Source of the DNA: a virus
Virus genome (UHGV): UHGV-0133741
Length of the DNA stretch: 64,000 nt
Direction: 5' to 3' (one strand)
The notes under the pieces were generated by a model that saw nothing but the letters and a program-made list of their open reading frames with translations, was not told the origin of the DNA and ran no database searches. The position numbers and the translations under genes were made by a program. Positions 6,676-7,720 of the stretch are shown one piece after another. Within the stretch, counting starts at the first letter, position 1. Each line of letters begins with the position of its first letter.

Positions 6676-6912
6676 ATGCAGAACAATCCGAACAAATGTC
6701 GAACGCTATGGGTGCGGTTATATATTTATGCCGTCCTCTGTTTGATTGTGTCACTGGTTCTGTATGTTTGGCTTTTGCCAAATATGATCTCATCTAACAG
6801 CACAATACTTGTATTGTTGGGAGTCCTTCTCGCGCTCATTTACCCGGCTTTCGCAGTAGTCTTTTTTCGTGAAAAAACCAGGAAATTAATTAATGAAAAA
6901 AACGTTGATTAG
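6676..6912 (+). CDS. small membrane protein (2 predicted TM helices)
   Basis: 78 aa; GAGAGG RBS; two hydrophobic helices; 3' end overlaps the start of the SPFH lipoprotein gene. Confidence 0.55.
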   Translation: MQNNPNKCRTLWVRLYIYAVLCLIVSLVLYVWLLPNMISSNSTILVLLGVLLALIYPAFAVVFFREKTRKLINEKNVD

Positions 6913-7720
6913 TGCAGCGATTATTTTGGGTTCTTTATGTCTGACCGGATGCGATCGGGTAGAGCCAGGTAACGTAGGGATCAAAGTAAATAAGCTGGGG
7001 GATGATAAAGGTATCGGTGAAGTAGTTGGCGTTGGTCGCTACTGGACAGGCTTGAATACTGAAGTTTATATCTTCCCGACCTTTAAGCAAATGAAGACAT
7101 ACGATGAGCCGTTCAGCTTCCAGATGAGCGACGGAACAACCATTGGTTACCACATCGGCGTAGCCTACAAGGTTGATCCAGCAAAAGTCACAACGGTATT
7201 TCAGACCTATCGCAAAGGTGTAGATGATATTACTGATACCGATCTACGCCAGAAGGTTGCAGATGCTCTGAACCGGTTAGCCAGCAAAATGACCACCGAC
7301 AAATTTATCGACGGTGGCAAATCTGAATTGCTTGATGCAGCCCTTAAAGACATTCAGGAAGAAATGACGCCAATCGGCATTCAGGTGATGAGCCTCTCTT
7401 ATGTAGGTAAGCCAGAATACCCGCCAACAGTTATTGACAGTATTAACGCCAAAGTCACGGCAAACCAAAAAACCCTGCAACGCGAGCAAGAGGTCAAACA
7501 ACGTGAAGCAGAGGCCAACATGCTGCGCGCGGAAGCTGCCGGACAGGCTGATGCTATTCGCACAAAAGCCCAGGCCGAAGCTGATGCCATTCGTTTACGT
7601 GGTGAAGCTCTGCGCCAGAACCCCGGTGTTATGGAGTTGGAAGCGATCAACAAATGGAACGGTACATTACCGCAGTATATGACCAGTAATACCGCTGTTC
7701 CGTTTGTTCCGGTGAAATAA
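6893..7720 (+). CDS. SPFH/band-7 family lipoprotein
   Basis: Signal peptide with lipobox LCLTGC; SPFH-like core; C-terminal Ala/Glu/Arg-rich coiled coil resembling HflK/C-type proteins. Confidence 0.7.
   Translation: MKKTLISAAIILGSLCLTGCDRVEPGNVGIKVNKLGDDKGIGEVVGVGRYWTGLNTEVYIFPTFKQMKTYDEPFSFQMSDGTTIGYHIGVAYKVDPAKVTTVFQTYRKGVDDITDTDLRQKVADALNRLASKMTTDKFIDGGKSELLDAALKDIQEEMTPIGIQVMSLSYVGKPEYPPTVIDSINAKVTANQKTLQREQEVKQREAEANMLRAEAAGQADAIRTKAQAEADAIRLRGEALRQNPGVMELEAINKWNGTLPQYMTSNTAVPFVPVK

Follow-up and report, generated by a model that had tools for sequence, protein, structure and literature searches.

The window analyzed here, a 64,000-nucleotide stretch of the virus genome UHGV-0133741, encodes on its plus strand a 78-amino-acid membrane protein with two predicted transmembrane (TM) helices (positions 6676-6912) and, overlapping it, a 275-amino-acid lipoprotein of the SPFH/Band-7 superfamily (6893-7720). 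Our main finding is that the pairing of these two genes is itself a conserved module, newly recognized here, with the small protein as the predicted inner-membrane partner of the larger one. A previous inspection of the window from its letters alone (the sequence-only reading) had picked out the two genes and described them as translationally overlapped, as is the case: both open reading frames (ORFs) are present and share 20 nucleotides. It had missed the pairing as a conserved feature, the position of the pair as an alternative allele in the tciABC slot of P1-like genomes, and its occurrence in P2-like, lambdoid, and virulent phages.

The evidence for a conserved pair comes from gene order and from natural fusions. 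Among close viral contigs, a small two-TM ORF ends at most about 40 nucleotides from the SPFH start in 78 of 80, with an overlap in the examples inspected; the other two probably reflect contigs that end about 210 to 240 nucleotides upstream. Of 80 species-level genome loci (31 to 93% identity), 56 had a recognizable partner by a hydropathy criterion. That criterion missed N-terminal extensions, fusions, and an IS1 interruption, and it was superseded by a search with a hidden Markov model (HMM) made from 24 small-partner sequences, which recognized exactly one ORF per locus, always immediately upstream and on the same strand, in 65 of 88 diverse loci. Represented among them are Enterobacterales, Dyella and other Rhodanobacteraceae, Sutterella, and Cupriavidus, and also Leptospira, Saprospirales, Flavobacterium, Dependentiae, and Aurantimicrobium. 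Paired loci span Proteobacteria, Leptospira, Bacteroidota, and Actinobacteria, together with several phage types; the Nevskia and Epibacterium loci that we inspected are prophages. Neither hydropathy nor the HMM found a partner in a distant clade of Bacteroidota and Kapaibacteria (31 to 36% identity). In the HMM alignment, the loop between the two helices of the partner carries the motif P-x-[LFM]-[IVL]-[SN]-[SA]-x-[SDN]-[ST]. Loci L092 and L093, from chromosomes of Shigella flexneri and Escherichia coli, have an IS1 element at the 3′ end of the small gene (about 3225-4000 of each locus), splitting the pair; this element was identified by eye from its InsA and InsB ORFs.

In two independent cases the partners are joined in frame, in a metagenome-assembled genome (MAG) of the Iamiaceae (L131, 3707-4921) and in an unclassified MAG (L136, 3470-4840). 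Both fusions run TM1, loop, TM2, basic linker, anchor helix with lipobox, and SPFH, the topology predicted for the split pair. They provide Rosetta-stone evidence of a physical partnership. A different kind of fusion arises at the overlap itself, where a run of seven A residues (6896-6902, plus strand) lies within the 20 shared nucleotides and an indel joins the two ORFs. Database protein P0001 (347 amino acids, 8 member sequences) consists of both ORFs fused, reading ...LINEK-TLISAAI..., and is accounted for by a 1-nucleotide indel in this run, either a sequencing error or a real variant. Programmed frameshifting at the same run was considered and rejected; the SPFH gene lies in the +1 frame with respect to the small ORF, and a -1 slip on A_AAA_AAC misses it.

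On profile and model grounds, the assignment of the large protein to the SPFH/Band-7 superfamily is solid. The Pfam Band_7/SPFH profile (PF01145) is matched with an E value of 9.7e-31 and 107.6 bits, against a gathering score of 23.6, over residues 22-208 of the protein and profile positions 2 to 176 of 176. The protein also matches PHROG_200, labeled "lipoprotein" (E = 2e-113). Its best sequence match in the PDB is E. coli HflK (residues 114-240, E = 1.8e-4), aligned through the coiled-coil region, followed by the coiled coil of prohibitin-2. The AlphaFold2 (AF2) model, built from an alignment of 138 sequences, has a mean predicted local distance difference test (pLDDT) score of 80 and consists of strands at residues 20-94, helices at 96-158, one continuous 65-residue helix at 178-242 (nucleotides 7424-7618), and a short helix at 244-254. 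A beta-rich SPFH1 part is thus followed by an alpha/beta SPFH2 part, with the tail modeled less confidently. Compared with the PDB by Foldseek, the model matches HflC and HflK (7vhq) over its full length (E = 3e-14 and 1.5e-13), and further full-length matches are to prohibitin (8rrh), erlin (9vvj), stomatin, flotillin, major vault protein, and QmcA (8z5g), so that subunits of every solved SPFH cage are reached. Invariant and near-invariant positions concentrate in the SPFH core and in a conserved C-terminal tail, KW[ND]GxLPxY...PF.

The same protein begins MKKTLISAAIILGSLCLTGC-DRV and thus has a classical lipobox, LTGC, with Cys20 as the predicted lipidation site and Asp at position +2. The signal peptide (residues 1-19, nucleotides 6893-6949) has the expected layout, MKK-TLISAAIILGSLC-LTGC, with a basic n-region and a hydrophobic h-region ahead of Cys20 (nucleotides 6950-6952), and in the AF2 model the first beta-strand starts 2 to 3 residues past that cysteine. 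Gly19 and Cys20 are invariant in nine diverse phage homologues. More widely, the lipobox is present in 203 of 225 relatives, and Asp occupies +2 in 143 of those 203. Under the E. coli +2 rule, Asp at this position specifies retention of a lipoprotein in the inner membrane. The Asp therefore predicts inner-membrane retention, in agreement with the obligate alpha-helical partner and with the fusions. The sequence-only reading had called the large protein an SPFH/band-7 lipoprotein with an HflK/C-like coiled coil, a description borne out by the Band_7 match, the lipobox, the alignment to HflK, and the long helix. Orthology to HflK or HflC was considered and rejected. The NCBIfam models score far below their cutoffs (TIGR01933 hflK, 23.3 versus 159.4 bits; TIGR01932 hflC, 24.7 versus 134.4 bits), only one SPFH gene is present, and in place of a TM anchor its product has a cleavable lipoprotein signal peptide.

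The small protein has hydrophobic segments at about residues 15-34 and 44-64, the predicted TM1 (about 6718-6777) and TM2 (about 6805-6867), separated by the loop motif PNMISSNST (6778-6804), which is predicted to be periplasmic. Its N terminus is basic, the loop is uncharged, and the tail after TM2 is again basic. By the positive-inside rule this charge pattern predicts an N-in/C-in hairpin with a short periplasmic loop and a cytoplasmic tail. It matches PHROG_1130, labeled "membrane protein" (E = 6e-16), and is therefore not a chance ORF; no Pfam family was matched above threshold. The suggestion of the sequence-only reading that the partner might be NfeD-like did not survive: Pfam gave no match to NfeD (PF01957) even at E ≤ 1, and 78 amino acids, taken up by two TM helices and short tails, leave no room for an OB-fold. 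This ORF is unannotated in the RCS47 record and in one RefSeq (PGAP) P1-like plasmid, and the latter also lacks annotation of plp and upl; the P2-like and lambdoid versions of the small partner are labeled "membrane protein" or "hypothetical protein."

Positions 5700-8200 of the window are 99% identical to the phage-plasmid RCS47 and 98.9% identical to other P1-like records, and P1 itself matches the flanks only. By this similarity the source genome is a P1-like phage-plasmid. Phage-plasmids of this type are vehicles of extended-spectrum beta-lactamase (ESBL) and mcr genes. Homology to P1 ends about 35 nucleotides 5′ of the first start codon of the pair and returns 9 nucleotides before trnI, and the start codon of P1 tciA falls in the same alignment column as that of the 78-amino-acid ORF. 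The blastn breakpoints (6650 and 7739) and the boundary alignments thus define an exchangeable cassette at about 6642-7738 (plus strand) that precisely replaces tciA-tciB-tciC of P1. In PLSDB, about 580 P1-like plasmids match the flanks; 189 of them, or about one third, carry the SPFH cassette at ≥99% identity, and 191 carry a P1-type tciABC. The SPFH cassette ranks among the major alleles of a P1 region already known to vary. The tciABC region has been listed as region 7 among eight variable regions of P1-like phage-plasmids, "nearly one-half" of which were without tciABC (PMC9603915), and that paper does not state what takes its place. Mapping by CRISPR interference (CRISPRi) found tciABC, trnI, and ban to be non-essential in P1 (PMC10695390).

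The flanks of the cassette are those of P1. Upstream on the plus strand are tRNA-Asn (5791-5866) and tRNA-Thr (5869-5944), both found by ARAGORN and by the Rfam tRNA model (74.5 and 71.9 bits). They are followed on the minus strand by homologues of plp (5915-6292) and upl (6293-6484), ORFs in a stretch 98.5% identical to the P1 region holding these two genes. The plp homologue covers the last 30 nucleotides of tRNA-Thr on the opposite strand, as it does in P1. Downstream, again on the plus strand, lie a tRNA with a CAT anticodon (7748-7823), likewise detected by both ARAGORN and Rfam, and ban, for a DnaB-like helicase (8103-9473). ARAGORN calls the CAT-anticodon tRNA a tRNA-Met, whereas P1 and RefSeq annotate it as trnI, a tRNA-Ile (ileX-like, lysidine-modified). 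The sequence-only reading had correctly placed the pair between tRNA-Thr and this tRNA, upstream of ban; plp and upl, on the minus strand, also intervene. Just 5′ of the cassette boundary, positions 6525-6640 (plus strand) give a partial match to the Rfam STnc100 family (RF02076) with 35 bits, below the gathering score of 47 (E = 3e-6 in a small search), over model positions 33-145 of 206 and with several non-canonical pairs. This stretch belongs to the P1 backbone and so is common to the tciABC allele; it might be a leader or a small RNA (sRNA) element of the slot.

The pair had also been assigned to a C1-repressed operon, and part of this stands. Oban (formerly Op72), the bivalent C1 operator overlapping the Pban promoters (5109-5136, plus strand) and presumably governing transcription toward the cassette and ban, is identical to that of P1 in an alignment of window positions 5080-5360 with NC_005856, and the pair and ban follow downstream on the same strand. 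However, a terminator scan shows a strong terminator-like hairpin at 5296-5318 (plus strand) followed by a T-run to 5325, between Oban and the tRNAs, and the operon is a matter of gene order; a C1-repressed operon that includes the pair is plausible from this arrangement. Transcription from Pban would have to pass the 5296-5325 hairpin before entering the tRNAs, the cassette, and ban. The hairpin is at the end of a conserved dicF-like region (5233-5335, plus strand), which is transferred from the P1 annotation by alignment, and the Rfam DicF model did not match it at E ≤ 0.1. A consensus sigma-70 scan of 5000-8200 found no promoter for the pair, and it also missed the annotated Pban.

Outside P1-like genomes, the pair recurs in the P2-like phage P88 and in Stx2-converting prophages, where the part of the gene encoding mature SPFH protein is about 86 to 87% identical in nucleotides. 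The P88 pair lies in the early region between cox and a replication gene, on the cox strand, and a 67-amino-acid two-TM ORF precedes the SPFH gene with an ATGA overlap. The Stx2 prophage carries the pair between the immunity region and xis/int, and an unannotated two-TM ORF of 62 amino acids overlaps the SPFH gene in the same way. The early-left region of this prophage is atypical; substitution of the pair for lambda CIII was examined, and the neighbors all belong to families without known function. Across the P1-like, P2-like, and lambdoid versions, from three unrelated types of E. coli phage, the mature SPFH proteins are 94 to 98% identical, compared to 32 to 58% for the signal peptides and 24 to 46% for the small partners. 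The nucleotide similarity to P88 and the Stx2 prophage (6946-7720) begins within a few bases of the Cys20 codon. This mosaic pattern suggests either that recombination joined the sequences at the signal peptidase II site or that the two parts are under very unequal constraint. The cassette has passed among phages of the P1-like, P2-like, and lambdoid types. Of 5,426 complete E. coli genomes, 460 contain a close nucleotide homologue, located at 199 plasmid and 310 chromosomal sites.

More distant relatives are widespread, the mature SPFH protein being about 35 to 45% identical across phyla. A tblastn search of 50,697 phage records found relatives in 795, and many of these phages are virulent (Vequintavirinae, N4-like Erwinia phages, Bruynoghevirus, Kayvirus, crAss-like, and Lak phages), with distant ones in haloarchaeal viruses. 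Genes for recombination and nucleotide metabolism surround the pair in SSU5, N4-like phages, and Vequintavirinae, and in SSU5, Fifi011, Hena1, KE22, and phiE125 a two-TM ORF of 49 to 67 amino acids lies 5′ of the SPFH gene. In the Vequintavirinae Hena1 (L007, 1832-2005) and KE22 (L008, 1832-1996), a soluble, charged ORF of 54 to 57 amino acids is inserted between the two. Kayvirus MSA6 (L175, 1193-2292) has mbpV (102 amino acids, one TM helix) overlapping mbpS (SPFH, TM anchored) by 1 nucleotide, directly after the endolysin gene lysK and near tgl, and in a crAss-like phage (L176, 1192-2801) an SPFH lipoprotein gene is two genes from one for a peptidoglycan hydrolase. From their positions, a link of these distant relatives to lysis is possible.

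What might such a pair do? We imagine, as a tentative proposal that the evidence favors over its rivals and that we regard as quite possible though short of probable, that it is a mobile accessory module with which phages build, early in infection, an HflK/C-like scaffold from two polypeptides, enclosing a client in the inner membrane, with the protease FtsH as the prime candidate. The 275-amino-acid protein would be exported, lipidated at Cys20, and kept on the periplasmic face of the inner membrane by virtue of its Asp at +2. The SPFH domain, the 65-residue helix, and the C-terminal tail would assemble into a ring or cage, by analogy with HflK/C, prohibitin, erlin, and stomatin. Translational coupling may allow the 78-residue hairpin to be made in step with the scaffold; docked under SPFH1, it would be the stoichiometric membrane-spanning subunit that a lipid-anchored scaffold lacks. 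The assembly would then fence off a patch of inner membrane and hold a conserved client, and capture of that client may retune membrane proteostasis and the integrity of the infected cell.

Several observations are consistent with this proposal. Because the pair lies between a promoter controlled by C1 through Oban and ban, it would be switched on with the early lytic genes and not in the quiescent lysogen; the intact Oban, annotated in P1 as the control of ban, and the position of the P88 pair between cox and a replication gene both fit an early, lytic context. The neighbors of the pair in SSU5, N4-like phages, and Vequintavirinae, and the many homologues in virulent phages, fit it too. The strong conservation across phyla favors a conserved host client, or a role in membranes generally, over a phage target that evolves fast. 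FtsH is the obvious candidate because SPFH cages on the extracytoplasmic side are repeatedly partnered with proteases of the FtsH type, as HflK/C is with FtsH. Prohibitin likewise pairs with the m-AAA protease.

A number of points weigh against the proposal. Sequence identity to HflK/C is only 17 to 19% in the Foldseek matches, and the score is 23 to 25 bits against the NCBIfam HflK and HflC models, for which the cutoffs are 134 to 159. A lipid-anchored SPFH protein is without the TM helix through which it could contact the TM region of FtsH, and the hosts of the haloarchaeal viruses with distant relatives may lack FtsH. By the E. coli rule, not every relative would be kept in the inner membrane, since Ser, Thr, Glu, or Tyr stands at +2 in some of them, and the Arg at +3 of the window protein has an uncertain effect on it. 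As for timing, the terminator-like hairpin (5296-5325) separates Oban from the pair. The Stx2 prophage pair lies downstream of cI on the same strand, and a possibly related Pasteurella prophage protein is produced in lysogens (PMC9872710); expression during lysogeny is therefore possible.

Other explanations deserve weighing. Many records name the 275-amino-acid protein a serine protease or a protease subunit; "putative serine protease" is the label in RCS47, Stx2 phages, P88, and Erwinia phage Pastis, and what favors it is these record names only. We give this reading next to no chance. It is refuted at the level of domain content, Band_7 being the sole domain: it spans residues 22-208, leaving only a signal peptide, a long helix, and a short tail. 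Pfam and NCBIfam give no protease family for this protein, and the structural matches are all to SPFH scaffolds. The name probably descends from an old COG label, "membrane protease subunits, stomatin/prohibitin homologs." A more serious contender is superinfection exclusion or envelope protection, in which the pair would block entry of a second phage's genome or protect the inner membrane from damage by that phage or by colicins; we see it as possible but on the unlikely side. The sequence-only reading had named superinfection exclusion, along with modulation of host membrane proteases, as a candidate role. The hypervariable accessory slot would suit such a role, as would its alternative occupant, the TerB-like tciABC, annotated by homology with tellurite or colicin resistance or phage inhibition, each of the two alleles being found in roughly one third of P1-like plasmids. 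So would transfer of the cassette among P1-like, P2-like, and lambdoid phages. Lipoproteins expressed early are also typical of exclusion systems, T5 Llp, Cor, and Ltp among them. However, exclusion proteins are usually narrow in range and fast evolving, and the breadth of conservation of this SPFH protein, which extends from Enterobacterales to Leptospira, Bacteroidota, and Actinobacteria, points instead to a target that is generic or on the host side. The PHROG matches of the pair are to families known only as membrane protein or lipoprotein, with none to Imm, Sp, Cor, or Llp, and in a search of the PADLOC-DB v2 defense models the SPFH protein had no match and the small protein scored just 12 bits (E = 0.023).

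That conservation would suit a physical role in the membrane, and it fits an effect on lysis timing or membrane integrity, as does the frequency of the family in strictly virulent phages. The scaffold might stabilize the energized inner membrane, or organize or delay holin rafts until assembly is complete; in a variant of this idea, the pair would counter host abortive-infection effectors that depolarize the membrane. The Kayvirus mbpV-mbpS genes adjoining lysK and tgl, and the crAss-like homologue near a peptidoglycan hydrolase gene, point the same way. Yet the pair lies outside the lysis module in the P1-like window, P88, the Stx2 prophage, SSU5, N4-like phages, and Vequintavirinae, and the Kayvirus partner, with one TM helix and no loop motif, perhaps belongs to another module. 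We judge a lysis role clearly unlikely. Very improbable, in our estimate, is a lysogenic-conversion or virulence lipoprotein, made in the lysogen, carried at the cell surface or in outer-membrane vesicles and acting on the animal host (as an agonist of Toll-like receptors 1 and 2) or on bacterial fitness. The precedent is PM0222 of Pasteurella multocida, an HflK/C-like SPFH protein of 25 to 35 kDa from a lambda-like prophage, whose kinship to the window protein is only possible; it was detected in vesicles, and its deletion lowers virulence (PMC9872710). The presence of the E. coli gene in Stx prophages and clinical P1-like plasmids would be in keeping with this. Asp at +2 and the obligate alpha-helical inner-membrane partner favor the inner membrane over the surface, virulent phages and environmental bacteria without an animal host have many members of the family, and the P1-type and P2-type pairs are, by position, in repressor-controlled early transcription units.

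Returning to the proposed scaffold around an inner-membrane client, its boldest form, which we consider possible but doubtful, is that phages of many phyla use a "split HflK/C" to capture FtsH or the DNA-entry route early, in a private membrane microdomain. If that were true, it would amount to an unrecognized and widespread mechanism of host takeover or exclusion by membrane compartmentalization; a client such as FtsH or the DNA-entry machinery would define a new class of phage-host membrane interaction. Scaffolds of the SPFH type (HflK/C, prohibitin, stomatin, erlin, and flotillin) have recently been seen by cryo-electron microscopy to form cages enclosing membrane patches, and the module described here would be a compact, two-component, virus-encoded version of them. 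SPFH proteins have been annotated in Kayvirus, Bruynoghevirus, N4-like, T4-like, and Burkholderia phages. In the phage SPFH literature we found annotation-level mentions and guesses (lysogeny, DNA entry, and secretion) and no functional study, nor did we find a description of a two-gene module or of PHROG_200 and PHROG_1130 as an obligate pair. What is new here is that a two-component SPFH module is widespread, mobile, and in places naturally fused. The pair should be easy to study, since it is about 1.1 kb, non-essential by position, and has natural fusions, and it suits two questions: what use an SPFH cage is to a virus, and how a lipid-anchored SPFH protein recruits a TM subunit.

Among known systems, the PHROG families that include the two window proteins, PHROG_200 and PHROG_1130, carry no assigned function, and Kayvirus MbpV differs from the window partner in its single TM helix and its lack of the loop motif. 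The tciA-tciB-tciC genes of P1 share with the pair the slot, the flanks, the position of the start codon, and the presumed Oban-to-ban unit, and they too encode small membrane proteins. The two cassettes, however, have no sequence relationship, and tciA encodes a TerB-domain protein, not an SPFH protein. By topology, one may liken the pair to exclusion proteins such as T4 Imm (a two-TM inner-membrane protein) and Sp, the membrane-tethered lipoprotein Ltp of TP-J34, and T5 Llp, in that a membrane hairpin and a tethered periplasmic protein would be expressed early. Unlike the pair, those proteins are narrow in range, none is an SPFH scaffold, and there is no detectable homology to them.

Similar in organization are the SPFH-NfeD operons (for example QmcA-YbbJ of E. 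coli, YqiK-YqiJ, and the archaeal stomatin PH1511-PH1510), in which a scaffold and an adjacent membrane partner are inherited together. The likeness is one of organization only: the window-type partner is a bare helical hairpin of 49 to 78 amino acids without an NfeD domain or OB-fold, its gene lies upstream of the SPFH gene, and the scaffold, a lipoprotein, is predicted to be on the periplasmic side, unlike QmcA, which faces the cytoplasm. E. coli HflK/HflC-FtsH (7vhp, 7vhq, 7wi3, and 9cz2), the source of the best sequence match and the top structural matches, has the same arrangement of an SPFH domain, a long helix that forms the wall, and a short cap at the C terminus, and a scaffold on the inner membrane facing the periplasm, as predicted for the window protein. 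The window scaffold differs in having one SPFH gene in place of two paralogues and a lipid anchor in place of an N-terminal TM helix, and in being phage borne, with a dedicated two-TM partner.

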